Assembly (NCBI GenBank): GCA_938049385.1 | Contig: CALIBQ010000012.1 | Span: 74,131 to 138,130, forward strand | Origin: an uncultured Anaerolineae bacterium | Lineage (GTDB): Bacteria; Chloroflexota; Anaerolineae; JACIWP01 | Direction: 5' to 3' | Length of the DNA: 64,000 bases | Shown here: positions 8,086 through 25,948 of the stretch, one piece after another | How the letters are laid out: every line of letters begins with the position of its first letter | Position numbering within the stretch: the first letter of the stretch is position 1 | The notes under the pieces: generated by a model | What the model was told of the DNA's origin: nothing | What the model saw: only the letters and a program-made list of their open reading frames with translations | The model's database searches: none | Position numbers and translations under genes: made by a program

Positions 8086-8179
8086 CTTCCCCTGGTCCCG
8101 GATACACTGATGATAGGATAGTGCCGTTCCCTATGAACATATTTCAACAGCCGGCGGTGCGGCCGGCAGGAGGTACATA

Positions 8180-8584: not shown

Positions 8585-9205
8585 TCACTGCGCCGGCGCA
8601 CCGATAAACTCCTCATACAAGTCAGCGAACACCGCCGGCGCTACGGCGTATATCTGGCGTAGCATCTCTTTCGCTAGCTCTCGGATCTCCCACTGCGCGT
8701 CCTGCCGACAGCGCACGCGGAAGAAATGCCGCAGTTCGCGGAAGTTCATCGTCACCACGATGCGGGTCGCCGCGGCGTTGGGCAGGAGGAATCTGCTGTC
8801 CTCTTTACGCACCCCCCGTTCTCGCAGTTTGCGGTAGGCTTCCCTGGCCTGCTCCATGAACTCGTTCCAGATTTCCATGGCGGCCGGGTCGCCGGCGACA
8901 GCCGGCGGCACCACAAATTCCGCGTCCGACATATCCACGTAGCGCTGGGATTCCTGGGAATAGCTGGCCAGGCGGTGGCGCACCAGTTGATGCGAGCAGG
9001 CGCGCGAGATGCCCGTGATGTAAAAGGTGGCCGAGGCATGCTCGATGATGGATTCATGCCCCTCGCGCACGCGCTTCATGACGAAATCGCCGGCGTCGCC
9101 GCGCGGCGCACTGCGGTAGCAGACCCGGCCGGCGAACTCCAGCAGTTCCACCGGCGTGCCCCCGCCCTTCAAATAGCGCGTTAAGGCGATCAGCTCAACC
9201 TGCAT
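8585..9205 (-). CDS. thyX: Flavin-dependent thymidylate synthase ThyX
   Basis: ThyX motif RHRLASYSQESQRY; AGGAGG RBS; lies 30 nt downstream of the SdhA-like gene on the same strand. Confidence 0.85.
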   Translation of the reverse strand: MQVELIALTRYLKGGGTPVELLEFAGRVCYRSAPRGDAGDFVMKRVREGHESIIEHASATFYITGISRACSHQLVRHRLASYSQESQRYVDMSDAEFVVPPAVAGDPAAMEIWNEFMEQAREAYRKLRERGVRKEDSRFLLPNAAATRIVVTMNFRELRHFFRVRCRQDAQWEIRELAKEMLRQIYAVAPAVFADLYEEFIGAPAQ

Positions 9206-9234
9206 TATCCTCCTCCTGGCAGAGGGAAGCACCC

Positions 9235-10866
9235 TCAGCGGATCTTGCGCGTGTAGTCGGGCAGGACCTGGGGCGAGGGCTTGGCGGTTTCCAGCAGGCC
9301 GGCCTGCGCCAACTGCTGGTTCCAGGCGCGCACATGCTCCAGGGTCAGCCGGCCCAGGCGCACCTCTTTCGCAAGCTGGCCGGCGGCGCGGCCGGCGCGC
9401 CGGCCGAACACCACCACGTCCAGCAGGGAATTGCCCATCAGGCGGTTGCGGCCGTGCACGCCGCCGGAGGCCTCGCCGGCGACGAACAGGCCCGGGATGC
9501 CGGTGAAGCCGTCCGGCCTGATGGCGACGCCGCCGTTCTGATAGTGCAGGGTTGGGTAGACCAGCATGGGTTCTTTGGTGATATCAATGCCAAAGCGGCC
9601 GAACTGGCGCACCATGGCCGGCAGTGCCCGGGCGATGGTACCCGGACCGTGAATCATGTCAATCATGGGGGAGTCCAGCCAGACGCCCACCATGCCGGTG
9701 GGGGTGCGTACCCCTTTGCCGCGTTCCACACACTCACGGATAATGGCGGAAGCCTCCACATCGCGCGTCTCGCGTGGGAAGACGAACTGCTCGCCGTCCA
9801 CATTCACCACTTGGGCGCCCAGGCCGCGCACCTTTTCCGTGACCAGCAGGCCCAGTATCTGCTCGGGGTACGCCGCGCCAGTGGGGTGATACTGCATGGT
9901 GTCGATGAAGGCCAGCCGCGCGCCGGCGCGGTAGGCCAGCACCAGCCCGTCGCCGGTAGCGCCGTGGTGATTCGTGGTCGGGTATCCCTGATAATGCAGG
10001 CGGCCGCTCCCGCCCGTGGCGATGATGGTCGCCTTGGCGCGCACCACCAGATGTTCGCCGGTCTCCAGGTTTTGGAGCACTGCGCCGGCGACTTGCCCTT
10101 TATCGTCCATCAACAGCTCGATGGCCGGCGAGAATTCCAGCACCGTGATGTCCTCGGGATGACTGCGCACCTCATCCCGCAGAGTGCGCATGATTTCCGC
10201 GCCCGAATAGTCGCGTGCCGAGTGCATGCGCTTGCGCGAGGTGCCGCCGCCGTGGATGGTGATCAGCGTCCCGTCCGGCTCTTTGTCGAACATGCACCCC
10301 AAGCTCTCCAGCCACTGGATGACCAATGGGGCGTCGCGCACCAGCGCCTCCACCAGGTCGGGGTCATTGACGAAATGGCCGCCGCCCATGACGTCCAAGT
10401 AGTGGATGGCCGGCGAGTCGTTCTCCTTGTCCGCCGCCTGGATGCCGCCCTGGGCCATCATGGTGTTGGCGTCGCCGTGGCGGAGTTTTGTGGCGATGAT
10501 GACCTTGGCGCCTTGCTCGCGCGCCAGCAGCGCGGCGGCGGAGCCGGCGCCGCCCCCACCGATGACGAGCACGTCGGTGTCATAATCCACCTGCTCCAGG
10601 TCCAGCTTGTCCGGATCGATCAGCGGCCGGCCTTCCAGCAGATCGGCCAGCTCGTGCGGCGTGCGGTCCCCTTTGTTAGGCCCGATGCGGATTTCGCGGA
10701 AGGCCGAGGCGATATAATCCGGGTGGAAGCGGCGCAGAATCTCCTCCTTCTCCTGGGGGGACATCATGGGGAAGGTCTCATGCAGGCGCGCCGGCCGGCT
10801 CGCTTCCACCTTCTTGATGGATTCTCGCATTTCGGGCGGATAGCCCATCTTGCCATCCCATTCCAT
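9235..10866 (-). CDS. Succinate dehydrogenase/fumarate reductase-family flavoprotein (SdhA/FrdA/TfrA-like) with ~95-aa N-terminal extension
   Basis: VLVIGGGGAGSAAA FAD dinucleotide fold, MQYHPTG, RNRLMGNSLLDVVVFGRRAG signatures of SdhA/FrdA flavoproteins. Confidence 0.85.
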   Translation of the reverse strand: MEWDGKMGYPPEMRESIKKVEASRPARLHETFPMMSPQEKEEILRRFHPDYIASAFREIRIGPNKGDRTPHELADLLEGRPLIDPDKLDLEQVDYDTDVLVIGGGGAGSAAALLAREQGAKVIIATKLRHGDANTMMAQGGIQAADKENDSPAIHYLDVMGGGHFVNDPDLVEALVRDAPLVIQWLESLGCMFDKEPDGTLITIHGGGTSRKRMHSARDYSGAEIMRTLRDEVRSHPEDITVLEFSPAIELLMDDKGQVAGAVLQNLETGEHLVVRAKATIIATGGSGRLHYQGYPTTNHHGATGDGLVLAYRAGARLAFIDTMQYHPTGAAYPEQILGLLVTEKVRGLGAQVVNVDGEQFVFPRETRDVEASAIIRECVERGKGVRTPTGMVGVWLDSPMIDMIHGPGTIARALPAMVRQFGRFGIDITKEPMLVYPTLHYQNGGVAIRPDGFTGIPGLFVAGEASGGVHGRNRLMGNSLLDVVVFGRRAGRAAGQLAKEVRLGRLTLEHVRAWNQQLAQAGLLETAKPSPQVLPDYTRKIR

Positions 10867-10890
10867 AGCGTAAGCTCCTCTCTGGAGGCC

Positions 10891-11571
10891 TTATTCAGGT
10901 TCAATATCGCGAGTGTTGTAGAGCTGGCGCAGTTCGGCGTTGGAAAGCGATTTTAGGCGCTGGATATCCTGGTCGTAGAGGCCGGCCTCGATCTCCTGCA
11001 CGCGCTTGGCCAGGTGCTGGGCGCGCGGGGCGATGTATCTGCCGTACAGCCGGCGGGCCAGGATGAAGATATTGTACTGCGCCTCCTCCGCCGGACAGCG
11101 CGAGACACACATGCCGCACATGATGCAGTCGAAGGATTTGTCGGCCACGCCGGCGATGTCCCCGCGCATGGCGCGCGCCATAATGTCTTTGACATCCAGC
11201 TCCTGCGGGCAGACCTTGGTGCAGGTCCCACAGCCAAGACAGCGCAGTAGCTCCGGATACAGCGAGACCAGCGTCCCAAAGGTGGGCTGTAGTTGGGTGA
11301 TATCGTACTGGGCGCGCGGGGCCGGGTAGAAGGGGATCTGCGCCAGGTACATCCCCGGCTCGACGACCGTCTGACAGGCCAGCCCGACGCGCAGGCGGTA
11401 ATCGCCGGCCAGGCGGTACACCGTGGCGCAGGCGCCGCAGAAGCCGGCGCGGCACCCCACGCCCCGCACCAGACGGTAGCCGGCATACTCCATTGCCTTC
11501 ATGATGGTCAGCCCGGGCGGGACATCATAGCGCTTGCCCATGATATAGACGGGAACCAGCTCCTCAGCCAT
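10891..11571 (-). CDS. SdhB/FrdB-like iron-sulfur subunit (2Fe-2S + 4Fe-4S ferredoxin domains)
   Basis: CRAGFCGAC (plant-type 2Fe-2S), CLGCGTCTKVCP and CIMCGMCVSRCP cluster motifs; GGGAGGAG RBS; stop overlaps the RBS of the next gene. Confidence 0.8.
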   Translation of the reverse strand: MAEELVPVYIMGKRYDVPPGLTIMKAMEYAGYRLVRGVGCRAGFCGACATVYRLAGDYRLRVGLACQTVVEPGMYLAQIPFYPAPRAQYDITQLQPTFGTLVSLYPELLRCLGCGTCTKVCPQELDVKDIMARAMRGDIAGVADKSFDCIMCGMCVSRCPAEEAQYNIFILARRLYGRYIAPRAQHLAKRVQEIEAGLYDQDIQRLKSLSNAELRQLYNTRDIEPE

Positions 11572-11595
11572 TCCAGCACTCCTCCCGAAGCTCGC

Positions 11596-12708
11596 TTATT
11601 TCCCCAAATCCGTCAGCTCATCCTCGCGAAAAGCGGCCAGCGGCAGTTCCTCTTCCAGACTGCGGCCGGCCTCATAGTTGAACAGCGCCTGCACCGACTG
11701 CGCCACCGAGCGGAACAAGGTCGCCACCGGCAGGCGGTTTGGACAGGCGCTCTCGCACAGCCCGCACCCCACACACGAAGTCGCCATGTGATTCAATCGG
11801 GTGATGTGGAACAGCAGTGTATCGGTGGGCATGCGGATGACGCCCCGGCGCTCCGCCCAGCGGAAGTACTGCTCCGGCTCATGGTCGAAGGTCGGGGTGC
11901 GGAAGATGCACTCCTTGCAGTAGCAGATGGGGCAGGCCACCATGCAGTTGTGACAGCGGATACAGGTGGCGAAGCGTTCGGCCAGCCGGCGTAAGTCCGG
12001 CACTTCCGTCCGCCAGGCGGCAAACGCAGTATCCCGCTCCGCAGTGCGCCGCGCCCGCACCTGTTCCAGGACCTCCTGCCGGCGCGCCGGCACATCCGCC
12101 GGCGGCAGTTCCACCGGCAGGGGCTCCTTGCTCTCCACCAGCACCTGCCGCGGGAAATCCAGCCCGATCAGGCCGATGCGGATGTCGGCGTTGGCCGCCG
12201 TCGGATATTCGCACATGCGGCAGGCACTGCGCAGGGCACAGCCGTCCGCCGGCAGTGCCTCCCCCTGGGCCGCGCCCCGCCACAGCTCCGCCGGCTGTTT
12301 GCCGGCACGCACCAGGGCGGCATAGTCCACCACCTCATAGGTGCCCAGGCAGTCCACCGCGATGGTGCGCACATGCTCCAGCGTGGCCTGATGCAGTTTG
12401 GTCAGCTCGATGAGGGCGCGCAGTTCGCAGGGGCGGAGCCAGACGCCCACTCGCCGGCCGGTGTCCATGACGGTCAGCCGGCCGGCCATGGTAGCCATAT
12501 TGTGGGACATCACCGGCGCCAGCGGCTCGCAGGCTTCCAGCGCCTCAGGCGATTCCACCAGCGCCGGCATAACTGCCTCGTCGCCGGCCAGCCGGCAGGG
12601 CACCAGCAGGGCATCCACATATCCCGAGGTCAGCAGTTCCGCCAGGAATTTCCGCAGGGCGCCGGCCGCGTCTTCCCCTTCTACGGGCAACCAGGCTTGT
12701 ATCGTCAT
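11596..12708 (-). CDS. Fe-S/flavin oxidoreductase, FrhB-like (coenzyme F420 hydrogenase/dehydrogenase beta-subunit family) with C-terminal 2x[4Fe-4S] ferredoxin domain
   Basis: C-terminal CIRCHNCMVACP and CVGCGLCESACP; N-terminal ~220 aa resemble the FrhB/FdhB/AsrA-type flavin-binding module (tentative). Confidence 0.6.
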   Translation of the reverse strand: MTIQAWLPVEGEDAAGALRKFLAELLTSGYVDALLVPCRLAGDEAVMPALVESPEALEACEPLAPVMSHNMATMAGRLTVMDTGRRVGVWLRPCELRALIELTKLHQATLEHVRTIAVDCLGTYEVVDYAALVRAGKQPAELWRGAAQGEALPADGCALRSACRMCEYPTAANADIRIGLIGLDFPRQVLVESKEPLPVELPPADVPARRQEVLEQVRARRTAERDTAFAAWRTEVPDLRRLAERFATCIRCHNCMVACPICYCKECIFRTPTFDHEPEQYFRWAERRGVIRMPTDTLLFHITRLNHMATSCVGCGLCESACPNRLPVATLFRSVAQSVQALFNYEAGRSLEEELPLAAFREDELTDLGK

Positions 12709-12739
12709 TGCTTTTCACAACCTCGATGTTCCTGTCCGT

Positions 12740-13162
12740 TCAGCTCATGGGCAGTTCGCGCATGGGGTTAGGACCCAGCCGGCGGAGGTGCTCCACCATC
12801 TCAGTAACTGTGTCGGCAAAGCGCTGGCCCTCGCTGGCGCTGATCCATCTCAGCCAGACCCGCTGGGGGTCAAAGCCCAGCCCGGCCAAAATGGTGTGCA
12901 AGATGGCGATGCGCCGGCGGGCCTTGTAGTTGCCGCTCTGATAGTGGCAGTCGCCGGGATGACACCCACCGATAAGCACCCCATCTGCGCCCTCCAGCAG
13001 GGCTTTGGAGACATAGACCGGGTCCAGGGCGCCGGTGCACATCAGCCGGATGACGCGCACGTTGGGCGGATACTGCAGGCGCGAGGTGCCGGCCAGGTCC
13101 GCCGCTGTGTAGGTGCACCAATTGCACAAGAATGCCACGATGCGCGGCTCAAAATCCGCCAT
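12740..13162 (-). CDS. mvhD: MvhD-like (methyl-viologen-reducing hydrogenase delta subunit family) Fe-S protein
   Basis: RIVAFLCNWCTY…RLMCTG…GGCHPGDCHYQSGN is the MvhD/FlpD signature; start chosen at MADFEPR (GGAGGGG RBS); the listed ORF extends to 13357. Confidence 0.75.
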   Translation of the reverse strand: MADFEPRIVAFLCNWCTYTAADLAGTSRLQYPPNVRVIRLMCTGALDPVYVSKALLEGADGVLIGGCHPGDCHYQSGNYKARRRIAILHTILAGLGFDPQRVWLRWISASEGQRFADTVTEMVEHLRRLGPNPMRELPMS

Positions 13163-13176
13163 ATCCCCTCCCCGGG

Positions 13177-13824
13177 TCAGGTTTCGCGAATATCCAGTAT
13201 CTTCAGCACCGCTGGCTGTAGGGCTTTCTCCAGCTCTTCGATGCCCACGTCTGCTACTTTCATCAGGATTTGTCGGGTCGCCGGGTCCTCGCCCATGAAC
13301 GTCCCCAGGCTGACGATGTTGCCGCCGACGCCGGCGATGATCTCGGCCAGCCGGCACAGTTCACCCTTCTGGTCCAGGATGAGCACCGCGGCGCGCACCC
13401 CATGCTCCCAACCGCCCAGCAGTTCCAGGAAGGTGCGGAACAGGTCGGTTTCGGTGATGATGCCGATAAGCTTGCCGATGTCGTCCACCACCGGCAGGCC
13501 GCCGATCTTATGCTGTACCATCAATCGCGCGGCCTCTTCAATGGTGTTGGACTCCCGCACGGTGATGACATCGCTGGTCATCACATCCTTCACGGTGATG
13601 CGCGTCAGCAGGTACTGCATCTCGTAAAGGCTCAGGGTGGTCGCCGGCGAGGGCGCGGCGTACAGCAAATCCTTTTCCGATACAATGCCGACAAGCCGGC
13701 CGTTCTCATCCACAATCGGCAGACGGCGCACTCGTTTCTCGCGCATCAACCGCAGTGCCTCCGGCAGAGGCAGGTCGGGCGAGACGGCCACAGGCTGGCG
13801 CGACATGCGTTCCGCGACTAGCAT
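13177..13824 (-). CDS. CBS-domain pair protein with C-terminal ACT-like domain
   Basis: Two CBS motifs (…RRLPIVDENGRLVGIVSEKDLL; …GGLPVVDDIGKLIGIITETDLF); tandem paralog of the next gene. Confidence 0.8.
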   Translation of the reverse strand: MLVAERMSRQPVAVSPDLPLPEALRLMREKRVRRLPIVDENGRLVGIVSEKDLLYAAPSPATTLSLYEMQYLLTRITVKDVMTSDVITVRESNTIEEAARLMVQHKIGGLPVVDDIGKLIGIITETDLFRTFLELLGGWEHGVRAAVLILDQKGELCRLAEIIAGVGGNIVSLGTFMGEDPATRQILMKVADVGIEELEKALQPAVLKILDIRET

Positions 13825-13829
13825 CTGTC

Positions 13830-14549
13830 TCACTCCTTTCCAGCCGGCTCGGCTTCGCCAGGGGCTTCGGCGCGGCCGACCGCTTCCGCCGGCGCGCACT
13901 CCCGGATGTCCAGCAGGACGAATCCCCGTTCCTGTACGGCCCGTTCGGCGATCGCCCGCACCTGCTCCAGCGGCACCTCGGCGATGCGCAGGGTGAGCTG
14001 GCGCGTGCCGGGCCGTGGGCCGTGAAACTCGCCGGCGCTGAGGATATTCCCGCCGGCGGCCGCAATGTGCCGGCAGAGATAGGCGATCAGGCCCTTTTCG
14101 TCGGGGATGAGCATGGAAAGCCGCACCGCCGGCACTGGGGTGTCCAGCACTTCCAGGAACACCCGGAAGATATCGGTCTCGGTGATAATGCCCACCAGCT
14201 CCCCCTGGCTGAGCACCGGCAGAGCGTCCAGCTTGTGCTCCACCATCAGCCGGGCCGCTTCTTCCAGCGGGGCGTCGGCGTCCACGGTGATGGGGTTTTC
14301 GGTCATGATGCTGGCGATTTTCACCTGGGCCAGTTGATACAGCATCTCATGCAGGGTGATGGCCGCGGTAGGGGAAGGCGACACCAGGAGCAGGTCGTGC
14401 TCGGCCACAAAGCCCACCAGCCTGCCGGCATAATCCTGGACCGGCAGGTGATGCACCCCTTTCTCATGCATGATGTAGAAGGCGTCCTCCACCGAGGCCG
14501 TCGGCAGGATGGTCACCGGGTTGGGTGTCATATAGTGACGGACTAACAT
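13830..14549 (-). CDS. CBS-domain pair protein with C-terminal ACT-like domain (tandem paralog)
   Basis: HHLPVQDYAGRLVGFVAEHDLL and DALPVLSQGELVGIITETDIF CBS motifs; overlaps the end of the giant HdrA gene. Confidence 0.8.
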   Translation of the reverse strand: MLVRHYMTPNPVTILPTASVEDAFYIMHEKGVHHLPVQDYAGRLVGFVAEHDLLLVSPSPTAAITLHEMLYQLAQVKIASIMTENPITVDADAPLEEAARLMVEHKLDALPVLSQGELVGIITETDIFRVFLEVLDTPVPAVRLSMLIPDEKGLIAYLCRHIAAAGGNILSAGEFHGPRPGTRQLTLRIAEVPLEQVRAIAERAVQERGFVLLDIRECAPAEAVGRAEAPGEAEPAGKE

Positions 14550-17644: not shown

Positions 17645-17669
17645 TTCGATGATTCCCCCGACTGTCGGC

Positions 17670-18233: not shown

Positions 18234-18331
18234 GTCTGCCTCCCCTGGCCTCTTCATGCTCTGCCGTGGTATGACGCCTTCGCCGCGTTGTGCAAATTAT
18301 ACTGCGAGACAGGCAGGGCGCAACTCCCCCG

Positions 18332-19195: not shown

Positions 19196-19758
19196 TCTCG
19201 CCCCTCCGGTGTTTCAGCGGCATGGGCGCCGGCGGCCTCGAACAGGCGTGCGATCTCCTGCCGGCGGCGGATAACTTGAGGGAGCGGCGGCAGTTTGCGC
19301 GCCAGCAGGAGCCGGGCACCCAGGTCCAAGTTGGACAGCAGGTCGAGGGAGCGCAGTTTGTACTCCACGATCATGGTGATCTCGTGCACCCGGCCGAAGC
19401 GCCGCAGGTTGTTCAGGAAGGCGCGGTGGAATTGGTATATCGCCGGCGCGCCCACCCGTACCCCTTCCTCCGCCGCCATCTGGCGCAGGGCGTCGTTGAT
19501 GCGCCCCACACAAATCCCGTTGGGACAGCGGGTGCCGCAGGTCTCGCACCCGACGCACATCCAGATGGCCTGGCTGGAAAGGAGCGCACGGCGTTCGCCC
19601 ATCTGCACCATATGCACGATTTGCGCCGGGTCATAGTCCATGACGAAGGCGGTGGGACAGCCGGCAGTGCACTTGCGGCACTGGTAGCATGTCGCGATGG
19701 GCTGACCGCTCCGCTCCGCCACGATGTCCATGAAGCGCCAATCTATCGGACTGCTCAT
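19192..19758 (-). CDS. hdrC: Heterodisulfide reductase subunit C-like (2x[4Fe-4S]), copy 2
   Basis: CYQCRKCTAGCP and CVGCETCGTRCP; ATGA start/stop overlap with the upstream hdrA. Confidence 0.8.
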   Translation of the reverse strand: MSSPIDWRFMDIVAERSGQPIATCYQCRKCTAGCPTAFVMDYDPAQIVHMVQMGERRALLSSQAIWMCVGCETCGTRCPNGICVGRINDALRQMAAEEGVRVGAPAIYQFHRAFLNNLRRFGRVHEITMIVEYKLRSLDLLSNLDLGARLLLARKLPPLPQVIRRRQEIARLFEAAGAHAAETPEGRE

Positions 19759-21512
19759 GCGCCCTCCTGCGCCTTCGCCGGCGCGAACAGCACATCCACC
19801 ATGGCGAGCACCTGTTCGGGGGTGTAGTTGCGCAGTTTGCTGGCCTTGTTCGGGCAGACCGTGGCGCAGGCACCGCATCCCTGGCACAGCGCGGCGTTGA
19901 CCGTCACCAGGGGCTTCCAGGGATGGGGCCGGCGGGCCTCGTAGGGACAGGCCGGCACGCAGAGCTGGCAGGCGGAGCACAGCTCCGGGTCTACCCAGGC
20001 GATGGTCGGCTCCTGCACCAGTTCATGGCGCGAGAAGAGGGAGAGCACCTTGGCGGCAGCCGCGCTGGCCTGGGAGAGGGTTTCGGGAATATCCTTCGGG
20101 CCCTGTGCCGCGCCGGCCAGGTAAATGCCGGCGGTCAGGCTCTCCACCGGCCGCAGTTTGGGATGCGCCTCATTGAAAAAGCCGTGCGCATCGGTGCCCA
20201 CCCGCAGGCGCTGGGCCAGGTCACGCGCATCTGCTCGCGGCACCACCGCCGTCGCCAGCACCACCAGGTCCGCGGCGATCTCCACCTGCTGGCCGCTCAA
20301 TGTATCGGCTCCCCAGACGATGACCTTATCGCCGTCGCGGAATATCTTTGATACCTTGCCGCGCAGGTACAGCACGCGCTCCTCTTCCATAGCGGCCTGG
20401 ACGAATTCCTCGGCGCCCTTGCCGCCGGAGCGGATGTCAATATAGAAGACATAGGCCTGGCCGTCAGGAGACTGCCGGCAGAACAGCCGCGCCTGCTTGG
20501 CGGTGTACATACAGCATATCTTGGAGCAGTAGGGCATGGCGTGTTCGGGGTCGCGCGAGCCGGCACACTGCACGAAAACCACCTCTTTGGGCGGCCGGCC
20601 GTCGGAGGGCCGCAGTACCCGCCCACCGGTGGGGCCATCTGGACGCAGGAGAGCCTCCATCTCCAGGCCGGAGATGACGTCGGGGACAGCGCCGGCGCCG
20701 TACTCGGGGAGCTGTTTCATGGGATACAGGTCGAAGCCGGTGGCCACGACGATGGCGCCGACGCTTGCCTCCTGCACCTGGTCCTCGCCCCGCCGGCGGA
20801 TGCGCACCGTGAAGTTCCCCACGTAGCCGTTGAGCGATTCCACCTCGCTCTCTGTCAGGACGGTGATCTCGGGGCGTGCGCGCAAGGCATCCAGCTTCTG
20901 CGCCAGCAGGTCGCCGGCCGATTCGAAATTGAGATAGGTGCCGGAGAGCTGGGCCATGCGTCCGCCCAGTTGCGCCTCGCGCTCCACCAGCAGGACGGGG
21001 AAGCCGGCTTCGGCGATGTCCAGCGCCGCCTGGATGCCGGCAATGCCCCCGCCGATAACCAGGGCACGGCGCACCACCGGCAGGGTGAATGGGAGCAGTT
21101 CCTCATCGTAGCGCACCTTCTCGATGATGGTGCGGATGACCTCGATAGCCTTGCGGGTGGCGGCGTCCGGGTCCTTGGCGTGCACCCAGGAGACCTGCTC
21201 GCGGATGTTGGCGATCTCGACGCGATAGGGGTTCAGGCCGGCGCTCTCGGCGTTGCGCCGGAAGGTGGCCTCGTGCATGGTGGGGGAACAGGCGGCCACG
21301 ACGATGCCGTCCAGCTTCTCCTCGGCGATCTTGCGGCGGATCAGCTCCTGTCCCGGTTCGGAGCACATGTACTTGTAGTCCAGGGCCACCAGCACCGCCG
21401 GCGCATCCTTGAACGCGTCCAGCACCTGCGGGATGTCCACGGTGCCGGCGATGTTCAGACCGCAGTGGCAGACGAACAGACCGATACGGTGGGCCTTAGT
21501 TTTCGCCGGCAT
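19755..21512 (-). CDS. hdrA: Heterodisulfide reductase subunit A-like, full-length (N-terminal CHCG Cys domain + FAD + ferredoxin domains)
   Basis: N-terminal RIGLFVCHCGLNIAG; GGGIAGIQAA; VQCAGSRDPEHAMPYCSKICC; CSACQLCVPACP and CQGCGACATVCP. Confidence 0.85.
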   Translation of the reverse strand: MPAKTKAHRIGLFVCHCGLNIAGTVDIPQVLDAFKDAPAVLVALDYKYMCSEPGQELIRRKIAEEKLDGIVVAACSPTMHEATFRRNAESAGLNPYRVEIANIREQVSWVHAKDPDAATRKAIEVIRTIIEKVRYDEELLPFTLPVVRRALVIGGGIAGIQAALDIAEAGFPVLLVEREAQLGGRMAQLSGTYLNFESAGDLLAQKLDALRARPEITVLTESEVESLNGYVGNFTVRIRRRGEDQVQEASVGAIVVATGFDLYPMKQLPEYGAGAVPDVISGLEMEALLRPDGPTGGRVLRPSDGRPPKEVVFVQCAGSRDPEHAMPYCSKICCMYTAKQARLFCRQSPDGQAYVFYIDIRSGGKGAEEFVQAAMEEERVLYLRGKVSKIFRDGDKVIVWGADTLSGQQVEIAADLVVLATAVVPRADARDLAQRLRVGTDAHGFFNEAHPKLRPVESLTAGIYLAGAAQGPKDIPETLSQASAAAAKVLSLFSRHELVQEPTIAWVDPELCSACQLCVPACPYEARRPHPWKPLVTVNAALCQGCGACATVCPNKASKLRNYTPEQVLAMVDVLFAPAKAQEGA

Positions 21513-22848
21513 GGACCACCTCCGGAACAGCTTGCCAGCGGGCGAAGAGGGCGAGCACCTTGGCGGCCGCGGCGCTGGCCTGCGCGACGGTTTCGGGGAT
21601 ATCGCGCGGGCCGACCGCCGCGCCGGCGATGAACACTCCCGGCCGGCGGGTGCTCACCGGCTCCAGGTTGGGGTTGACCTCCTGCAGGAAGCCGTGCGCA
21701 TCCACGTCAATGCCCAGCAGTTCTGCCAGCCGGCGCGTCTCCGGCCGCGGCACGATGGCCGTTGCCAGCACTACCATGTCCGCGGCGATCTCCACCTGCT
21801 GGCCGCTGAGGGTATCCGCCCCCCAAACCACCACTTTGTCGCCGTCGCGGAAAATCTTGGAGACCTTGCCGCGCAGGTACAGCACGCGGTCCTCCTCGAC
21901 GGCGCGCTGGAGAAACTCCTCATAGCGCCGGCCGGCGGTGCGGATGTCAATGTAAAAGACGTAGGCCTGGCCGTTCGGCACCCGATGGCGGTACAGCATG
22001 GCGTGCTTGGCGGTGTACATACAGCAGATGGTAGAGCAGTAGGGCATGGCCTTTTCCGGGTCGCGCGAGCCGGCACACTGCACGAAAACCACTTCTTTCG
22101 GCTCGCGCCCGTCGGAGGGCCGGCGGATTTTGCCGGCGGTGGGGCCGGAGGCGGACAGCAGTCGCTCGAAGGCCAGGCCGCTGATGACGTCCGGCACCTG
22201 GCCGGCGCCGTACTCGCCCAGGCGCGTTACATCGTACAGGTCATAGCCGGTGGCCAGGATGACGGCGCCGGCCTCAATCTCGAACAGCGCATCCTCCTGG
22301 TCGTAGGCGATAGCACCGGTAGGACAGAACTTCTCGCAGACGCGGCATTTGCCCTGGGTGAAGAAGCGGCAGCGCGCTTTATCAATGATCGGCTTGTTGG
22401 GCACGGCCTGCGGGGAAAGGGTGTAGATGGCCTTGCGCCGGCCCAGGCCCATATCAAAATCGGACTCCACACGCGTCGGGCATTTCTCGATGCACACGCC
22501 GCAGCCGGTGCAGATATCCCAGTTGACGCCGGCCGCGCGCCGGCGGATGCGCGCCCGGAAATGTCCGACCTCCCCCTGGATGTCCTCGACCTCGGCGTAG
22601 GTGATGAGATGGATGTTGGGATGGTGGCCAACCTCAACGGTGCGCGGGGTCAGGATGCACTGGGCGCAGTCCAGGGTGGGGAAGGTCTCCGATAACTGCG
22701 CCATGTGCCCGCCGATGGAGGGGAGCTTCTCCACCAGGGTAACCTCGTAGCCGGAATTGGCGATATCCAGCGCGGCCTGCATGCCGGCGATGCCGGCGCC
22801 GATGATGAGGGCATGCGGGTTCGGCGCACCAGTGTGCCGGGTCATCAT
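21496..22848 (-). CDS. hdrA: Heterodisulfide reductase subunit A-like paralog lacking the N-terminal Cys domain
   Basis: Starts directly at IIGAGIAGMQAA; inserted ferredoxin CTGCGVCIEKCP, CRVCEKFCP; VQCAGSRDPEKAMPYCSTICC; long stretches ~85% nt-identical to 19755-21512. Confidence 0.85.
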   Translation of the reverse strand: MMTRHTGAPNPHALIIGAGIAGMQAALDIANSGYEVTLVEKLPSIGGHMAQLSETFPTLDCAQCILTPRTVEVGHHPNIHLITYAEVEDIQGEVGHFRARIRRRAAGVNWDICTGCGVCIEKCPTRVESDFDMGLGRRKAIYTLSPQAVPNKPIIDKARCRFFTQGKCRVCEKFCPTGAIAYDQEDALFEIEAGAVILATGYDLYDVTRLGEYGAGQVPDVISGLAFERLLSASGPTAGKIRRPSDGREPKEVVFVQCAGSRDPEKAMPYCSTICCMYTAKHAMLYRHRVPNGQAYVFYIDIRTAGRRYEEFLQRAVEEDRVLYLRGKVSKIFRDGDKVVVWGADTLSGQQVEIAADMVVLATAIVPRPETRRLAELLGIDVDAHGFLQEVNPNLEPVSTRRPGVFIAGAAVGPRDIPETVAQASAAAAKVLALFARWQAVPEVVHAGEN

Positions 22849-23747
22849 GGGGCTTTCACCTCTCCCAGAACGCCGGCCTGCGTCAGCACCGGTCGGGGGT
22901 CCACATAATGCTGTTCGAAGCCGTAGCCGCTGGTGTCCAGGCCGAAGGCCAGGCCCATCAACTGGGTGAAGTACAGCACCGGCAGGGGTCGATACGAGGC
23001 ATACTGCTGGCGCAGGCGGGCCTGGAGCCAGTCCAGGTTGAACTGGCACAGCGGGCAGGCGGTGGCAAGCACATGCGCGCCGGCCCGCTCTGCGGCCGAA
23101 AGGATGCGGTACGACATGGGCATGGAGGCCTCAGGGGACTTCACCGTCAGGTATGCCCCACAGCACTCGCCGCGATGGGGGTAGTCCACCACCTCGGCGC
23201 CCAGCGCCGCCAGGAGCTGGTCCATGATGTCCGGGCGCTCCGGGTCATCCAGGGCGATCTCGGCCGCCGGCCGCAGGAGCATACATCCGTAATAGGCGGC
23301 CGCACGCAGACCCCGCAGGCCCGGCACGGCGCACTGTCGGATGGCTTCCAGGCCGATATCATGCACGAAAATGTCCAGCAGATGCCGCACCTCGACCTGG
23401 CCGGCATACGGCTGGGGCCGCTCCAGGAAGGCGTTCAATTTTTCCAGCGTCTCAGGGTTATTGCGGAGGAAGTGGTTGGTGCGGCGCAGGACGTTGAAGC
23501 AGGTGGCACAGGCCACAGCCAGGGTATCGCCGCCGGCCTCGGCCGTGCTGACCAGGTTGCGCGCCGGGCCGGCCAGGTCCAGCACGTTGTCGGTGGAGAG
23601 GGGGAAGGTCGCCCCACAGCAGTTCCATTCGGGCAGGGTGACCAGCTCCACCCCCAGCGCGCCGGCGGCATCCTTCGCGGAGCGGTTGAAGCCCACCGCC
23701 TTGGTCTCCAGCGTACAGCCGGGAAAGTAGAAATAGCGCATCTTCAC
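22845..23747 (-). CDS. hdrB: Heterodisulfide reductase subunit B-like (two CCG domains), copy 1
   Basis: FPGCTL, WNCCGAT, ACATCF, YYGCML, ECCGAY, ACPLCQ; ATGA overlap with the downstream hdrA. Confidence 0.85.
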   Translation of the reverse strand: MKMRYFYFPGCTLETKAVGFNRSAKDAAGALGVELVTLPEWNCCGATFPLSTDNVLDLAGPARNLVSTAEAGGDTLAVACATCFNVLRRTNHFLRNNPETLEKLNAFLERPQPYAGQVEVRHLLDIFVHDIGLEAIRQCAVPGLRGLRAAAYYGCMLLRPAAEIALDDPERPDIMDQLLAALGAEVVDYPHRGECCGAYLTVKSPEASMPMSYRILSAAERAGAHVLATACPLCQFNLDWLQARLRQQYASYRPLPVLYFTQLMGLAFGLDTSGYGFEQHYVDPRPVLTQAGVLGEVKAP

Positions 23748-23777
23748 GCTCCAGTGCGTGTAATGATCTGCTCGGCG

Positions 23778-24185
23778 TCAGGCCGTGTATTTGCGGAAGC
23801 CGGCAATGAATGCCTGCTGAGGGAACTCGGCCAGCGCCTGCACATCCAGCCGGGCGATCTCCAGATGATCGCCTCGCTTCTGCATGGCCAGCTCCCGCAG
23901 GGCCTCCATCAGCCGCGGCAGGTCTACCCCTTTGGGACAGCGCGCGTAGCAGGTCTGGCAGGCCGCGCAGTACCAGATGGTCTGGCTTTCCAACGCGCGC
24001 TCGACCTGGCCCAATTGGACCAGCCGGATGATCTGGTTGGGCAGGAGGTCCATGACCTCCGCGGCCGGACAGCCGGCGGAGCACTTGCCGCAGTGATAGC
24101 AGGCCATCACATCCTGGCCGCTGACCTCCTCAATGCGCCGCACCCATTCGGAACGCACCTGCTCGACAGAAATTGTCACGCGCAT
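23778..24185 (-). CDS. hdrC: Heterodisulfide reductase subunit C-like (2x[4Fe-4S]), copy 1
   Basis: CYHCGKCSAGCP and CAACQTCYARCP. Confidence 0.8.
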   Translation of the reverse strand: MRVTISVEQVRSEWVRRIEEVSGQDVMACYHCGKCSAGCPAAEVMDLLPNQIIRLVQLGQVERALESQTIWYCAACQTCYARCPKGVDLPRLMEALRELAMQKRGDHLEIARLDVQALAEFPQQAFIAGFRKYTA

Positions 24186-24188
24186 GGG

Positions 24189-24785
24189 TTACACCTTCTG
24201 CAGGAGTTTGCGGTACTTTTCCCGCTCCGCAACATAGGCATCGCCGCCGTAGATGTCGTTGATGACAATAGCCGGGAAGTCCACCACTGTCAGTTCTTGG
24301 ATCGCCTCCGGCCCCAGGTCTTCATAGGCGATGACGCGGGCGGCGACGATACTGCGGGAGATGAGCGCGCCGGCGCCGCCGGTAGCGGCGAAGTAGACGC
24401 ACTGATAGCGCTTCATCGCCTCGATGACCTCGGGGGCACGTTCCCCTTTGCCGATCATGCCCTTGATGCCGGCGGCCATCAGGCGCGGGGCATAGGCGTC
24501 CATGCGGTAGCTGGTGGTGGGGCCGGCGGAACCAATGGGGCGGCCGGGCTTGGCCGGCGAAGGGCCCATATAATAAACGACCTGGCCGGCGGGGTCAAAG
24601 GGAAGCGGTTCGCCGCGTTCCAGGGCCTCGACCATGCGCTTGTGCGCCGCGTCGCGCGCCACATAAATGATGCCGTTGATGAGAACCTTGTCGCCGGCGC
24701 GCAGGGGCGTGATCTGCTCCAGGGTGAGGGGTGTAGTCAGGCGAATTCCTGTCTTTTCCATGACCGTGTTCCTTTCGTCGCTCAC
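24189..24785 (-). CDS. Class I fumarate hydratase beta subunit (Fe-S hydro-lyase, tartrate/fumarate family, beta region)
   Basis: 198 aa with the FumA C-terminal/TtdB-like catalytic domain (IKGMIGKGER, ATGGAGAL). Confidence 0.8.
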   Translation of the reverse strand: MSDERNTVMEKTGIRLTTPLTLEQITPLRAGDKVLINGIIYVARDAAHKRMVEALERGEPLPFDPAGQVVYYMGPSPAKPGRPIGSAGPTTSYRMDAYAPRLMAAGIKGMIGKGERAPEVIEAMKRYQCVYFAATGGAGALISRSIVAARVIAYEDLGPEAIQELTVVDFPAIVINDIYGGDAYVAEREKYRKLLQKV

Positions 24786-25627
24786 AAGATAGCTTCTTTA
24801 TGGCGCGCCGCATGGCACTGGATGTTCACCGCCACCGGCATGCTGGCCAGGTGGCATGGATGGGTCTCCACATGCACGGCCAAGGCCGTTGTACGGCCGC
24901 CCAATCCCTGCGGGCCGATGCCGGTGCGGTTGATGCGCTCCAGCAGTTCCCGCTCCAGGTCTGCCACCTCTGGCTCTGGATGGTGTTCGCCCACTGGGCG
25001 GAGCAGGGCGTGTTTCGCCAGCGCCATGGCCTTATCGGCGCTCCCGCCGATGCCAACCCCGACGATGATAGGCGGGCAGGGGTTGGCGCCGGCCTTTTCC
25101 ACGCTTGCCACGACGAAGTCCACGATGCCCTGCCGGCCGGCCGCCGGCGGCATCATCGAGAGGAAGCTCATGTTCTCACTGCCGCCGCCCTTGGGCAGGA
25201 CGATCAGCTTGAGCTGGTCTCCGGGAACAAGCCGCACGTGGATCACTGCCGGCGTGTTATCGCGGGTGTTCTTGCGCGCCCCAAAAGGCGGGTACACCAT
25301 GGACTTACGCAGATAGCCCTCGGTATAGCCCTGACGCACCCCCTCATTGACGGCATCCTCAAACGCACCACCAACAATATGTACATCCTGACCCACTTCA
25401 GCGAAGACCACGGTCAGGCCAGTGTCCTGACAGATGGGGACCTCCTCCTGTCGGGCAATGGCGGCGTTCTCCAGGATTTGGTCGAGGATTTCCCGCCCCA
25501 GCGGTGAAATCTCCTGTTCGCGAGCCTTCTGCAGGGCTTGGACAACGTCCTCTCCCAGGAAGTAATTGGCCTCCATGCAGAGGCGCTTGACCGTCTGTAC
25601 GATGTCTTGAAAGGAGATCTCTTTCAT
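24782..25627 (-). CDS. Class I fumarate hydratase alpha subunit (Fe-S hydro-lyase alpha region)
   Basis: FumA N-terminal/TtdA-like domain with cluster cysteines (…PICQDTG…, …NPCPP…, …QCH…); start chosen at MKEISFQ; first gene of the long minus-strand operon. Confidence 0.8.
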   Translation of the reverse strand: MKEISFQDIVQTVKRLCMEANYFLGEDVVQALQKAREQEISPLGREILDQILENAAIARQEEVPICQDTGLTVVFAEVGQDVHIVGGAFEDAVNEGVRQGYTEGYLRKSMVYPPFGARKNTRDNTPAVIHVRLVPGDQLKLIVLPKGGGSENMSFLSMMPPAAGRQGIVDFVVASVEKAGANPCPPIIVGVGIGGSADKAMALAKHALLRPVGEHHPEPEVADLERELLERINRTGIGPQGLGGRTTALAVHVETHPCHLASMPVAVNIQCHAARHKEAIL

Positions 25628-25694
25628 GGATGGCGTCCTCCCGCCTGCGTATGTAGGATGTGGTACCTGCTCTGCCCTAGGGGGAATAAAACAA

Positions 25695-25758
25695 CAGGAC
25701 ACGTTTGGTCAGACTGCCGGCGCAGTTGGCGGCCGGTCTCCCACGCAAACGTGTCCTG
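25695..25758. promoter_or_regulatory. 13-bp perfect inverted repeat CAGGACACGTTTG-N38-CAAACGTGTCCTG in the leader/promoter region of the fum-hdr-sdh operon
   Basis: Seen directly in sequence, 70-130 nt upstream of the fumarase-alpha start on the minus strand. Confidence 0.35.
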
Positions 25759-25948
25759 TGCGGAAACCCATGTCCTTCCTATGGGTAAACCTCGTTTCCC
25801 GGCACGACCTGCATGCCAACCGACAGCGATTATGGGCCGCATGGATGGTTCATCTTCACCAATAAAAATTGTTCAATATGCTGTCAATGCCAGCCTGTGC
25901 TCCATTATAATACGAGCAAGGCTTTTGTCCAAATGTGAAACAGATTGC

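Follow-up and report, generated by a model that had tools for sequence, protein, structure and literature searches.

An Hdr-linked operon for a putative soluble fumarate reductase in an uncultured Anaerolineae bacterium: a wiring variant of a proposed and widespread enzyme system

Background

Soluble fumarate reductases whose genes are linked to those of heterodisulfide reductase (Hdr) proteins have been proposed in bacteria, and the subject of this report is a 17-gene operon that joins a class I fumarase, Hdr-type proteins and a fumarate-reductase-type pair of subunits in this way. The operon lies in a stretch of 64,000 nucleotides, called the window below, from an uncultured Anaerolineae bacterium (assembly GCA_938049385.1, contig CALIBQ010000012.1, positions 74,131 to 138,130 of the forward strand). 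In Pseudoclostridium thermosuccinogenes, as its 'succinate operon' is described in PMC7282089 (which cites a 2019 preprint, Koendjbiharie & van Kranenburg), a fumarate hydratase is encoded together with seven Flx-Hdr genes and two fumarate reductase genes, and according to that description the operon is proposed to make a new fumarate reductase in which the formation of succinate is coupled to the reduction of ferredoxin. Tubeworm symbionts (Candidatus Endoriftia and the Escarpia symbiont) and Thioflavicoccus carry tfrAB with flxABCD-hdrABC and korABCD (PMC6315080, PMC11636981); in the model put forward for the symbionts, fumarate reduction drives ferredoxin reduction (PMC6315080), and co-expression data have been published (PMC11636981). 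A 2026 survey still treats a bifurcating Flx-Hdr fumarate reductase as a suggestion (PMC13147460), and the published Flx-type model of NADH-driven electron bifurcation has the standing of a hypothesis. In the summary that the same survey gives of Miura 2008, FrdABCDE of Hydrogenobacter thermophilus is a purified, cytoplasmic and irreversible NADH-dependent fumarate reductase (PMC13147460).

For the HdrABC homologues of non-methanogenic bacteria, the FrdAB clade described below offers a recurrent candidate substrate, namely fumarate. In M. wolfeii HdrA, as summarized in PMC9012536, the C-terminal ferredoxin domain takes electrons from MvhD; an N-terminal cluster completed by Cys197 of the partner, together with an inserted ferredoxin domain, leads to ferredoxin. 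A heterodimer logic has been set out for the tandem and fused HdrA proteins that occur in ANME archaea and for Moorella, whose MetFV-HdrABC-MvhD complex contains a fused HdrA (Chadwick et al. 2022, PMC9012536): one paralogue has the N-terminal cluster domain and lacks Cys197, its partner has Cys197 and lacks the N-terminal domain, and HdrA fusions of more than 1000 amino acids (aa) can act as their own heterodimer.

By examining the predicted proteins of the window operon, and the gene neighborhoods and phylogeny of relatives of its catalytic subunit, we conclude that it probably encodes a cytoplasmic, Hdr-coupled soluble fumarate reductase that works reductively; the fuller statement, in which fumarate reduction is also coupled by bifurcation to the reduction of ferredoxin, we regard as evenly balanced. 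The operon is a distinct wiring variant of a proposed and very widespread enzyme system, and its predicted proteins mark it out by the lack of FlxAB, an FdhB-like adaptor, an asymmetric HdrA core and a double HdrBC set. An initial interpretation made from the letters alone (the sequence-only reading) had taken the combination for an undescribed one; a fumarase with Flx-Hdr and a two-subunit fumarate reductase (PMC7282089), and tfrAB with flxABCD-hdrABC and korABCD (PMC6315080, PMC11636981), were already in the literature.

Results

Fumarase and putative fumarate reductase subunits

The operon runs on the minus strand from 25627 to 8585, where 17 genes are tiled almost without gaps (the span of the open reading frames (ORFs) in the ORF list is 8585-25702). 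In the direction of transcription its first half reads fumA-fumB-hdrC1-hdrB1-hdrA1-hdrA2-hdrC2-hdrB2 and its second half GNAT-hdrAA-CBS1-CBS2-mvhD-FdhB-like-frdB-frdA-thyX; all the genes listed in the sequence-only reading are present in that order, and Pfam domains confirm every assignment. The first two genes encode a two-subunit class I (Fe-S) fumarate hydratase: the alpha subunit, FumA (24782-25627), has 281 aa from an ATG at 25627 and matches Fumerase with 398 bits (E 2.5e-119), and the beta subunit, FumB (24189-24785), matches Fumerase_C with 187 bits (E 2.6e-55), both far over the cutoffs. The start of fumA is preceded by GGGAGGA, and the homologues in two related loci (L085 and L086) likewise have 281 aa.

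At the other end of the operon, frdA (9235-10866) encodes a flavoprotein of 543 aa whose sole Pfam domain is FAD_binding_2 (residues 98-481, E 7.8e-72). Its earlier description as SdhA-like holds for this flavoprotein domain, with the correction that Succ_DH_flav_C (PF02910) finds no match and that the protein carries an N-terminal extension of ~95 aa with a conserved HPDY motif. In an alignment of 85 FrdA family members the residues to which fumarate or succinate binds in solved enzymes, H327 (in HPTG), R368, H441 and R475, show no variation, and the same is true of E344 and R347; with these binding residues kept and no transmembrane helix found, the idea of a soluble SdhAB-like fumarate reductase is upheld. 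Among NCBIfam models FrdA ranks TfrA (358.6 bits) above Sdh (298) and NadB (280), all far under their cutoffs. In a bootstrapped neighbor-joining (NJ) tree, labelled NadB proteins form the outgroup to FrdA, TfrA and Sdh; the TfrA and Sdh references make up one clade (98% bootstrap) and the FrdA family, which lacks the C-terminal domain, another (90%). The position of NadB Glu121 is taken by His205 in the window protein and by His in 73 of the 85 family members. Phylogeny against L-aspartate oxidase had been named as a test that could overturn the sequence-only reading, and it separates the SdhA-like protein from NadB: by these characters FrdA is a fumarate-reductase-type enzyme, not an L-aspartate oxidase.

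The residue at the position of the covalent-FAD histidine is Asn134, and Asn stands there in all 85 family members. Enzymes with non-covalently bound FAD, such as the His44 variants of Escherichia coli FrdA, reduce fumarate and do not oxidize succinate efficiently. The replacement of this histidine therefore argues for the direction from fumarate to succinate, and makes unlikely the succinate oxidizer that had been offered as an alternative.

The iron-sulfur subunit FrdB (10891-11571; 226 aa; Pfam Fer2, Fer2_4 and Fer4 families) combines a plant-type [2Fe-2S] motif (C40, 45, 48, 66) with two complete CxxCxxCxxxC motifs; it is 55% identical to Sporomusa FrdB and only remotely similar to solved SdhB chains. 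The traits of FrdA (the HPDY extension, the missing Succ_DH_flav_C, the Asn and the binding residues) and an adjacent FrdB of ~225 aa with one 2Fe-2S and two 4Fe-4S motifs place the pair within the Hdr-associated soluble FrdAB clade.

MvhD and FdhB-like adaptor proteins

Upstream of frdB lie two genes for putative electron-transfer adaptors. The first, mvhD/flxD (12740-13162), encodes an MvhD-type [2Fe-2S] protein of 140 aa (Pfam FlpD, E 1.9e-53) that is 53% identical to Sporomusa FlxD. The second (11596-12708) encodes a 370-aa FdhB-like Fe-S (possibly flavo-) protein, recognized by its matches to FdhB chains in the PDB: 9t1s_M (1.7e-23), 8rvu_E (2.7e-21, residues 14-356) and 7bkb_E (1.1e-18). 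It had been labelled FrhB-like, which is right at the level of the FdhB/FrhB family; the Pfam match to FrhB_FdhB_C is only sub-threshold, and the full-length homologue is FdhB (8rvu_E). The matched chains are the beta subunit of F420-dependent formate dehydrogenase, which in solved complexes links FdhA to MvhD and HdrA.

A tree of 50 FdhB-family proteins from the surveyed loci falls into two deep clades. Genes of the FlxC clade are always followed by flxB, and genes of the clade that includes the window protein sit between mvhD and frdB; with Sporomusa FlxC the window protein shares just 24% identity. One relative (L067:9305-13521) has an isolated frdB-frdA-(130-aa ORF)-mvhD-fdhB-like operon; its neighbors are unrelated TPR/kinase and LVIVD-repeat genes, and hdr genes are absent within 10 kb. 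In some Thermoflexales and Anaerolineales (L011, L012, L017, L018, L023) an extra fdhB-like gene of 344-362 aa stands between frdB and frdA, and these extra genes form a sub-clade of their own in the FdhB-like tree. Because of the FdhB homology, the clade-specific position between mvhD and frdB and the L067 operon, an electron chain MvhD - FdhB-like - FrdB - FrdA is argued for, by analogy with MvhD - FdhB - FdhA.

An asymmetric HdrA core and two HdrBC pairs

The window operon contains four HdrA modules in three proteins. HdrA1 (21496-22848) is a truncated HdrA of 450 aa that matches residues 152-571 of 8rvu_a (E 5.4e-132); it consists of a thioredoxin-reductase-like FAD domain, an inserted ferredoxin domain and a DCxxC motif with the Cys197-type ligand, and has neither the N-terminal Fe-S domain nor the C-terminal ferredoxin domain. 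HdrA2 (19755-21512; 585 aa) matches residues 12-245 and 321-652 of the same chain (E 1.4e-155) and is complementary in content: it has an N-terminal Fe-S domain (with four N-terminal Cys), an FAD domain and a C-terminal 2x[4Fe-4S] ferredoxin domain, and lacks the inserted ferredoxin domain and the DCxxC motif. The same complementarity was found by motif scan in L007, L008, L073, L085 and L086, and the HdrA of Flx-type and Kor-type operons is of the canonical four-domain kind instead. By domain content, the adjacent hdrA1 and hdrA2 are predicted to be complementary halves of a heterodimer; given the route from MvhD to ferredoxin in M. wolfeii HdrA, they would therefore hold one complete path, not two. 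The two proteins share 68% identity over their last ~259 aa and only ~48% over the first FAD-binding segment, which suggests a recent duplication or gene conversion limited to the C-terminal part of the FAD domain.

The third protein, HdrAA (14543-17644), is a fused double HdrA of 1033 aa, for which the 100%-identical public record P0271 gives 1020 aa; it was identified by Pfam, NCBIfam and BLASTP. Its N half resembles HdrA1, with an inserted ferredoxin domain and a CxxC, and its C half resembles HdrA2, with a C-terminal ferredoxin domain; between them lies a linker (approximately residues 450-610) that is a degenerate remnant of the N-domain without any Cys. BLASTP identities are 39% to HdrA1 and 33% to HdrA2, and in this comparison, which also included Sporomusa HdrA, linker residues 462-650 match N-domain residues 3-182. 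Judged by this domain content, HdrAA is a pseudo-dimer made by fusion. All four HdrA modules keep the C..C...CC cluster motif that belongs to the FAD domain. In two Anaerolineae loci (L015:11647-20285 and L025:11716-20346) a second hdrAA-mvhD pair lies downstream of frdA, and after it comes a giant HdrA-like ORF of ~1560-1630 aa, which indicates that the FrdA-linked operon family has still larger HdrA fusions.

The two HdrBC pairs are encoded on either side of hdrA1-hdrA2. HdrC1 (23778-24185; 135 aa; Pfam Fer4_8/17) has two CxxCxxCxxxC motifs and scores 72.5 bits on TIGR03290, under the cutoff of 160. HdrB1 (22845-23741) has two complete CCG motifs (Pfam CCG in two stretches, E 1.9e-24) with ten Cys (9, 41, 42, 78, 81 / 153, 193, 194, 229, 232). 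The second pair consists of HdrC2 (19192-19758; 188 aa; Pfam Fer4_8/9/17), whose gene overlaps its neighbors by ATGA on both sides, and HdrB2 (18332-19195; CCG, E 5.6e-24), again with two complete CCG motifs; HdrC2 is 41% identical to HdrC1, and HdrB2 41% to HdrB1. On the MFR anchor SdhE model HdrB1 and HdrB2 score 160 and 138 bits, and on the methanogen HdrB model 187 and 145, all sub-cutoff. Identity to the Sporomusa Hdr subunits is 52-55% for HdrA1/HdrA2, 46% for HdrC1 and 39% for HdrB1.

Relatives and phylogenetic spread of the FrdA family

A pattern scan of one genome per GTDB species gave at least 600 stretches, of which at least 596 are confirmed relatives of FrdA. The best 80 are at least 59% identical over the full length, and are spread over Anaerolineae, Dehalococcoidia, many Clostridia (the isolate Sporomusa rhizae among them), Syntrophomonadaceae, Synergistaceae, Spirochaetota, Desulfobacterales, Cloacimonadota and Thermoplasmata; frdB is next to frdA in 78 of these 80. 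Near-identical FrdA proteins in public records carry the name 'FAD-binding protein [Anaerolineae bacterium]'. The neighborhoods were annotated with phmmer, using the window proteins and FlxA, FlxB, NuoF and Kor as queries, and counts refer to those 53 species-level loci whose upstream sequence was 6 kb or longer. The co-occurrence that the sequence-only reading had proposed to look for is borne out: same-strand hdr genes are found in 43 of the 53.

The commonest architecture, hdrB-hdrC-hdrA-flxD-flxC-flxB-flxA-frdB-frdA, accounts for 19 loci. Nine are of the window type, with mvhD and an fdhB-like gene and without flxA; 11 combine hdrA and hdrBC but lack an fdhB-like gene (in several, the genes come after korDABG); one has hdrCB only; and the 10 loci outside the 43 include several with fumAB-frdBA alone. 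Minimal hdrC-hdrB-frdB-frdA operons occur (L013, L014, L032, L078), as do Kor-linked members of the same FrdA clade (L002, L037, L046, L052). Fumarase genes are present in 14 of the 53 loci and a 2-oxoacid:ferredoxin oxidoreductase in 11. All of these architectures are intermixed within one tight FrdA clade (100% bootstrap, NJ), and the window FrdA is 64% identical to that of the Sporomusa rhizae Flx-type operon. The picture is of a single catalytic module that appears to have swapped its electron-input modules repeatedly.

The arrangement found in the window has close counterparts. L085 has the same 17 genes in the same order, including GNAT, both CBS genes and thyX, with a double-HdrA that is just 51% identical; L086 has 14 of the 17 (it lacks GNAT, one CBS gene and thyX), with a double-HdrA 44% identical. 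Beyond the Anaerolineae, the core order hdrA1-hdrA2-(hdrC-hdrB)-hdrAA-mvhD-fdhB-like-frdB-frdA recurs in metagenome-assembled genomes (MAGs) of a deltaproteobacterium (L054), a member of the Spirochaetales (L073) and a member of the Deferrisomatales (L082), and in a Thermoplasmata archaeon (L040). Because the order recurs in loci with a 44-51%-identical double-HdrA and in other phyla, the 17-gene arrangement is to be read as conserved, not accidental. The union of an Hdr core, MvhD, a protein of the FrhB/FdhB family, an SdhAB-like pair and a class I fumarase in one operon, as put forward in the sequence-only reading, is thus confirmed by synteny in relatives.

Fusions of the catalytic subunits also occur in the family. 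P0122, of 727 aa, is a FrdB-FrdA fusion whose N-terminal ~200 aa hold 2Fe-2S and 4Fe-4S motifs, and a 612-aa FrdA ORF in L082 (9839-11677), with no separate frdB detected, may be another.

Gene junctions, transcription signals and accessory genes

Start codons in the window operon were picked from Shine-Dalgarno context. Three junctions are ATGA overlaps (hdrB1/hdrA1, hdrA2/hdrC2, hdrC2/hdrB2), in line with the several such overlaps claimed before, and fumA/fumB adds a GTGA overlap; longer overlaps join hdrA1/hdrA2 (17 nt) and hdrAA/cbs1 (7 nt). The other gaps measure 3-36 nt, apart from 98 nt between hdrB2 and GNAT (74 nt from an alternative start), so that the description of all junctions as overlapping or shorter than 35 nt applies to most of them and fails for two, of 36 and 98 nt. 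The stop codons at 10891 and 11596, which had been placed inside the next ribosome-binding site, in fact lie 8-9 nt upstream of the Shine-Dalgarno motif. The 98-nt gap (18234-18331, minus strand) is the sole long intergenic gap and holds GCAGTATAAT; it may contain an internal promoter that drives the GNAT-hdrAA-...-frdA half separately.

Ahead of fumA, one strong promoter-like site, TGGACA-16-TATAAT (25904-25931, minus strand), has 11 of 12 consensus matches ~277 nt upstream of the start and faces a divergent promoter-like site of plus-strand ABC-transporter genes; by consensus match it is a candidate promoter. An Rfam scan of the ~277-nt stretch upstream of fumA found no riboswitch or leader, and terminator-like matches in the scan were no more frequent than chance. 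No transmembrane-like segment was found in any of the 17 operon proteins.

Four genes of the operon lie outside the redox set. They encode a GNAT acetyltransferase of 187 aa (17670-18233; Acetyltransf_1, E 1.1e-13), two CBS-pair proteins and the flavin-dependent thymidylate synthase ThyX (8585-9205; Thy1, E 9.7e-69). CBS-pair protein 1 (13830-14549; 239 aa; CBS x2, E 5.9e-34) is probably regulatory; CBS-pair protein 2 (13177-13824; 215 aa; CBS x2, E 9.7e-42) is 45% identical to it over the full length and shows a sub-threshold match to TTHA0829-like_ACT (24.0 bits; cutoff 27.4). CBS-pair genes were seen only in Anaerolineae versions of the operon, thyX in L001 and L085 and the GNAT gene in L085; neither of the latter two was found in L086 or in other phyla. 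Because the core order recurs elsewhere without them, the thyX, GNAT and CBS genes are lineage-specific riders on a conserved unit of redox genes, and thyX is a co-oriented passenger outside the redox system.

Other features of the window

Directly downstream of thyX, at 6606-8563, lie a minus-strand gene for a MocR-type regulator (GntR and aminotransferase domains) and a convergent plus-strand DUF2917 gene, whose stop is 21 nt from the thyX stop with no recognizable terminator between them. On the other side of the operon, tandem plus-strand genes for MttB-family methyltransferases (30745-32199 and 32208-33698; Pfam MTTB, E ~1e-97 each) are preceded by a Liv-type ABC transporter (binding protein 26028-27278) and followed by an aminotransferase gene (34562-35782). 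Their reading frames are uninterrupted and hence of the non-pyrrolysine type, and the locus may serve the demethylation of quaternary amines or betaines. Farther along, a glmS ribozyme (44416-44645, minus strand; Rfam RF00234, 48.5 bits, over the gathering score) lies directly upstream of a long minus-strand ORF, presumably glmS.

Discussion

Proposed mechanism

From these features we infer that the operon products form a complex, and propose a cytoplasmic, anchor-free route from malate through fumarate to succinate. The two-subunit class I fumarase would provide fumarate, which FrdA, with non-covalent FAD, and FrdB, with its 2Fe-2S and two 4Fe-4S clusters, would reduce. FrdAB would be wired through the FdhB-like Fe-S protein and MvhD into the HdrA-type flavoproteins, much as the same adaptor chain plugs formate dehydrogenase into HdrA in methanogens. 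In the asymmetric core, HdrA1 would contribute the ferredoxin-exit domain along with the Cys197-type ligand, and HdrA2 the N-terminal cluster as well as the C-terminal ferredoxin domain that faces MvhD; the fused pseudo-dimer HdrAA and the two HdrBC pairs would complete the system. Fumarate reduction would most likely be the high-potential branch of a flavin-based bifurcation at HdrA, with ferredoxin reduced in the low-potential branch via the inserted ferredoxin domain of HdrA1. The fumarate/succinate potential is +33 mV (PMC5861303), far above plausible donors, so that this reaction can be the exergonic branch.

The operon has no recognizable module for the mid-potential donor, and in relatives NADH would enter via FlxAB or a NuoEF-like subunit. 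With FrdAB placed at the MvhD port, the entry point of the donor would have to be HdrBC, HdrAA or the flavin itself. In Sporomusa, FlxA carries FAD_binding_6, NAD_binding_1 and DHODB_Fe-S_bind and FlxB carries Fer4_22 (Pfam); tblastn with FlxA, FlxB, NuoF-like and KorABG sequences found no match anywhere in the 64-kb window. Ten flanking genes searched with Pfam likewise showed no donor module, their only matches being to DnaK, a two-component system, the MocR-type regulator, the DUF2917 protein, the ABC-transporter binding protein, the two MttB-family proteins, the aminotransferase and a saccharopine-dehydrogenase-like protein. Two relatives have candidate inputs of their own. In the Thermoplasmata MAG L040 (989-2854) a 621-aa NuoE-NuoF-ferredoxin fusion (2Fe-2S_thioredx, Complex1_51K, SLBB, NADH_4Fe-4S and two Fer4 domains) is encoded between hdrA1 and hdrA2 of a window-type operon and is likely the NADH input in that lineage. 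On a gammaproteobacterial-looking contig outside the surveyed loci (L003/L004:9366-12891), frdB-frdA of the same FrdAB family (48% identity) are followed by a 418-aa NuoF-like gene, which may make up a three-subunit soluble NADH:fumarate reductase. For the window organism, our guess is NADH supplied by an unlinked module, or a thiol entering via HdrBC. F420, which the sequence-only reading had considered as a redox partner, is not supported, because the FrhB_FdhB_C match is sub-threshold and relatives carry NADH modules (FlxA or NuoF-like).

Several observations weigh against this mechanism. The operon proteins show no NAD(P)H, hydrogenase or formate-dehydrogenase module by Pfam. The MvhD port is the donor port in methanogens, and FrdAB placed there needs the canonical branches to be re-wired. 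HdrAA is without any N-terminal cluster, and its low-potential path may be incomplete. By gene order, FrdB may contact either the FdhB-like protein or HdrB, and forms in which frdB is adjacent to hdrB exist (L002, L013, L014, L078). A short Anaerolineae form, fumAB-hdrC1B1-hdrA1A2-(CBS)-frdBA, occurs in L007, L008 and L005 without hdrC2B2, hdrAA, mvhD and the fdhB-like gene, and the long form is therefore not obligatory. A presumed single transcript would have to cross a TATAAT-bearing gap of 98 nt ahead of GNAT, and the literature searched described no purified enzyme or structure of the Hdr-linked FrdAB family, the Flx form being still called 'putative'.

Alternative explanations

The reductive, Hdr-coupled enzyme has to be weighed against two readings that keep its parts and change their connection. 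FrdAB and Hdr could be two enzymes in series, linked through a diffusible or protein thiol-disulfide couple as in Methanothermobacter with no single supercomplex: a split Tfr (FrdAB with one HdrBC pair) would make a disulfide and a separate HdrA-HdrBC would re-reduce it, possibly with bifurcation. TfrA is indeed the top-scoring model for FrdA, TfrB fuses FrdB-like and CCG modules in an enzyme whose biochemistry is reported as established (Heim 1998; Bobik & Wolfe 1989; both cited via PMC8764690), minimal hdrC-hdrB-frdB-frdA operons exist, and two HdrBC pairs with complete CCG motifs would fit a thiol-oxidizing and a disulfide-reducing site. We nevertheless consider this unlikely: most operons of the family (Flx, Kor and short Anaerolineae forms) have a single HdrBC pair, which cannot both make and consume the disulfide, the operon proteins include no candidate for a thiol carrier (DsrC or coenzyme M/coenzyme B (CoM/CoB) biosynthesis), and the mvhD-fdhB-like-frdB synteny and the L067 operon favor direct protein wiring. 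Direct wiring could, in turn, be a mere electron sink, with reduced ferredoxin or another low-potential donor passing electrons through HdrA, MvhD and the FdhB-like protein to fumarate and no energy conserved. The missing mid-potential donor module, the HdrAA protein without the N-terminal cluster of the bifurcating low-potential path, and the co-located 2-oxoacid:ferredoxin oxidoreductases (11 of 53 loci), which tie the system to ferredoxin, would agree with it; but it would waste ~0.5 V, the cluster motif in all four HdrA modules and the precise HdrA1/HdrA2 complementarity are hard to explain for a wire, and relatives add NADH modules, not ferredoxin-only inputs, all of which makes it quite improbable in our estimate.

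The remaining readings change the reaction itself or its partner. Homologous operons in MAGs of Syntrophomonadaceae, Syntrophobacterales and Desulfobacterales would suit a reversed system, useful to syntrophic oxidizers, in which succinate is oxidized and its electrons are confurcated with those of reduced ferredoxin to a disulfide or NAD+; this is very unlikely in view of the Asn that replaces the FAD-attachment His in 85 of 85 family members, the in-operon fumarase and the probably fermentative Anaerolineae host, which fit the reductive branch, and the transcript data for the Flx form, which in the account given in PMC7282089 come from a succinate producer. HdrB1 and HdrB2 score nearly as well on SdhE as on the methanogen HdrB model (all sub-cutoff), as would be expected if HdrB/HdrC acted as SdhE/SdhF or GlpC and docked FrdAB to the quinone pool, as in a type-E-like quinol:fumarate reductase, with the HdrA genes belonging to something separate. 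Such an enzyme is highly improbable here, where no subunit has a transmembrane or strongly hydrophobic segment, FrdA lacks both the covalent FAD site and the complex II C-terminal domain, and the genes for HdrA, MvhD and the FdhB-like protein keep their place between hdrBC and frdBA in different phyla. That the SdhA-like protein is an L-aspartate oxidase or reduces some other unsaturated acid seems hardly credible: proteins with FAD_binding_2 only do include urocanate and other reductases, and FrdA is under every NCBIfam cutoff, but NadB is the outgroup to a C-domain-less family with 90% bootstrap, 73 of 85 members have His where NadB has Glu121, the His/Arg set that binds dicarboxylates does not vary, and a fumarase gene shares the operon in 14 of 53 loci.

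Significance

The FrdAB clade is carried by at least 596 species-level genomes, among them gut Clostridia, Anaerolineae of digesters and sediments, Dehalococcoidia, Thermoplasmata, Spirochaetota and relatives of sulfate reducers. If fumarate reduction does drive ferredoxin reduction, the bifurcating reaction would be a new one; it would account for succinate being formed with no membrane-bound reductase, and would supply low-potential electrons for 2-oxoacid synthases in reductive tricarboxylic acid (TCA) branches; the system may then conserve energy during succinate formation and be relevant to the engineering of succinate production. The window variant shows the NADH module to be dispensable or exchangeable, and its natural asymmetric HdrA pairs suit the structural dissection of the bifurcating path. 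A more ambitious extension, which we consider doubtful, is a new class of bifurcating enzyme: FrdAB would dock to an obligately asymmetric HdrA heterodimer at its MvhD/FdhB-like port, electrons would enter elsewhere (an HdrBC thiol, HdrAA or the HdrA flavin), and ferredoxin would be reduced without NADH modules, quinones or membranes. It would amount to a soluble 'fumarate respiration' in abundant lineages of the Anaerolineae, Thermoplasmata, Spirochaetota and Deltaproteobacteria type.

Comparison with known systems

Three familiar assignments do not describe the operon. Complex II is rejected on the absence of a membrane anchor (no transmembrane-like segment in 17 proteins), on Asn134 at the covalent His and on the lack of PF02910; NadB on a score of 279.6 bits (cutoff 452.75), on His205 at the Glu121 position and on the outgroup position of the NadB references. 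The sHdr system (hdrC1B1A-hyp-hdrC2B2 with LbpA) resembles the window only in the gene order C1B1-A-...-C2B2: all HdrA modules of the window carry ferredoxin domains, which the short sHdrA lacks, and no lipoyl/GcvH-like domain was found by Pfam among the 17 proteins. FrdABCDE of Hydrogenobacter thermophilus, likened here by description only, shares the combination of SdhA/B-like catalytic subunits with extra redox subunits; it differs in its NADH donor, and the survey's summary reports no bifurcation for it (PMC13147460).

The thiol:fumarate reductase TfrAB of Methanothermobacter (EC 1.3.4.1) is like the window system in that an FrdAB-type module works with HdrB-type CCG modules, in that both are cytoplasmic and quinone-independent, and in that TfrA is the best curated model for the window FrdA. 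Like TfrB, FrdB has full motifs for two 4Fe-4S clusters and not a 3Fe-4S motif. The window proteins are nevertheless not a bona fide TfrAB: on NF004900 (TfrA) FrdA scores 358.6 bits, the cutoff being 718, and covers model positions 5-427 of 546 only; on NF004898 (TfrB) FrdB scores 37.9 bits, the cutoff being 385, and has no CCG domain, the CCG motifs being on HdrB1 and HdrB2, which are proteins of their own. P0183, a bona fide TfrA (765 bits), falls in a different clade, and the window FrdA differs in lacking the C-terminal domain and in its family-specific N-terminal extension. CoM and CoB thiols are, to our knowledge, not to be expected in bacteria.

With the methanogen complexes MvhAGD-HdrABC and FdhAB-MvhD-HdrABC (PDB 5ODC, 7BKB, 8RVU) the window shares the C..C...CC motif of the HdrA FAD domain, HdrB with ten Cys in two CCG motifs, HdrC with its two 4Fe-4S motifs, and MvhD, beside which a homologue of FdhB is encoded. 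The four-domain symmetric HdrA homodimer of these complexes is not found, the window having split HdrA1 and HdrA2 with complementary motifs, and a scan of the 17 operon genes and 10 flanking genes found neither MvhAG hydrogenase nor FdhA. The place after the FdhB-like gene is taken by FrdAB, and the acceptor is presumably fumarate, not CoM-S-S-CoB. The asymmetric HdrA logic of ANME archaea and Moorella is seen in HdrA1/HdrA2, where it is conserved in five other loci, and in part in HdrAA, which has CxxC in its N half and an N-domain without Cys. Here, however, the partners also divide the two ferredoxin domains, the HdrAA halves are in reversed order with all N-domain Cys lost, and the catalytic module is a fumarate reductase.

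The tubeworm-symbiont clusters likewise co-locate a soluble AB-type fumarate reductase with Hdr genes, and Kor-linked loci fall in the same FrdA clade as the window. Theirs is a system with NADH input via FlxABCD, an autotrophic reductive TCA cycle and a 2-oxoglutarate:ferredoxin oxidoreductase, whereas the window has neither the Flx NADH module nor kor genes and comes from a probably fermentative member of the Anaerolineae. Closest in content is the P. thermosuccinogenes succinate operon, which has in common with the window a fumarase, HdrABC, an MvhD-type protein, a protein of the FdhB/FlxC family and a soluble FrdAB; the Flx-type architecture, checked by Pfam in Sporomusa, corresponds to it gene for gene, as matched by gene count and order only. 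Of the components of FlxABCD-HdrABC, the window has a FlxD (MvhD-like) protein and HdrA, HdrB and HdrC. Membership is rejected for the other three: no FlxA domains (NADH/FAD/2Fe-2S) occur in the 17 proteins and no tblastn match to FlxA in the 64 kb, FlxB finds neither Fer4_22 nor a tblastn match, and in place of FlxC stands the FdhB-like protein, 24% identical and from the other deep clade, whose genes are followed by frdB. To the shared set the window adds the split HdrA1/HdrA2, the fused HdrAA and a second HdrBC pair.

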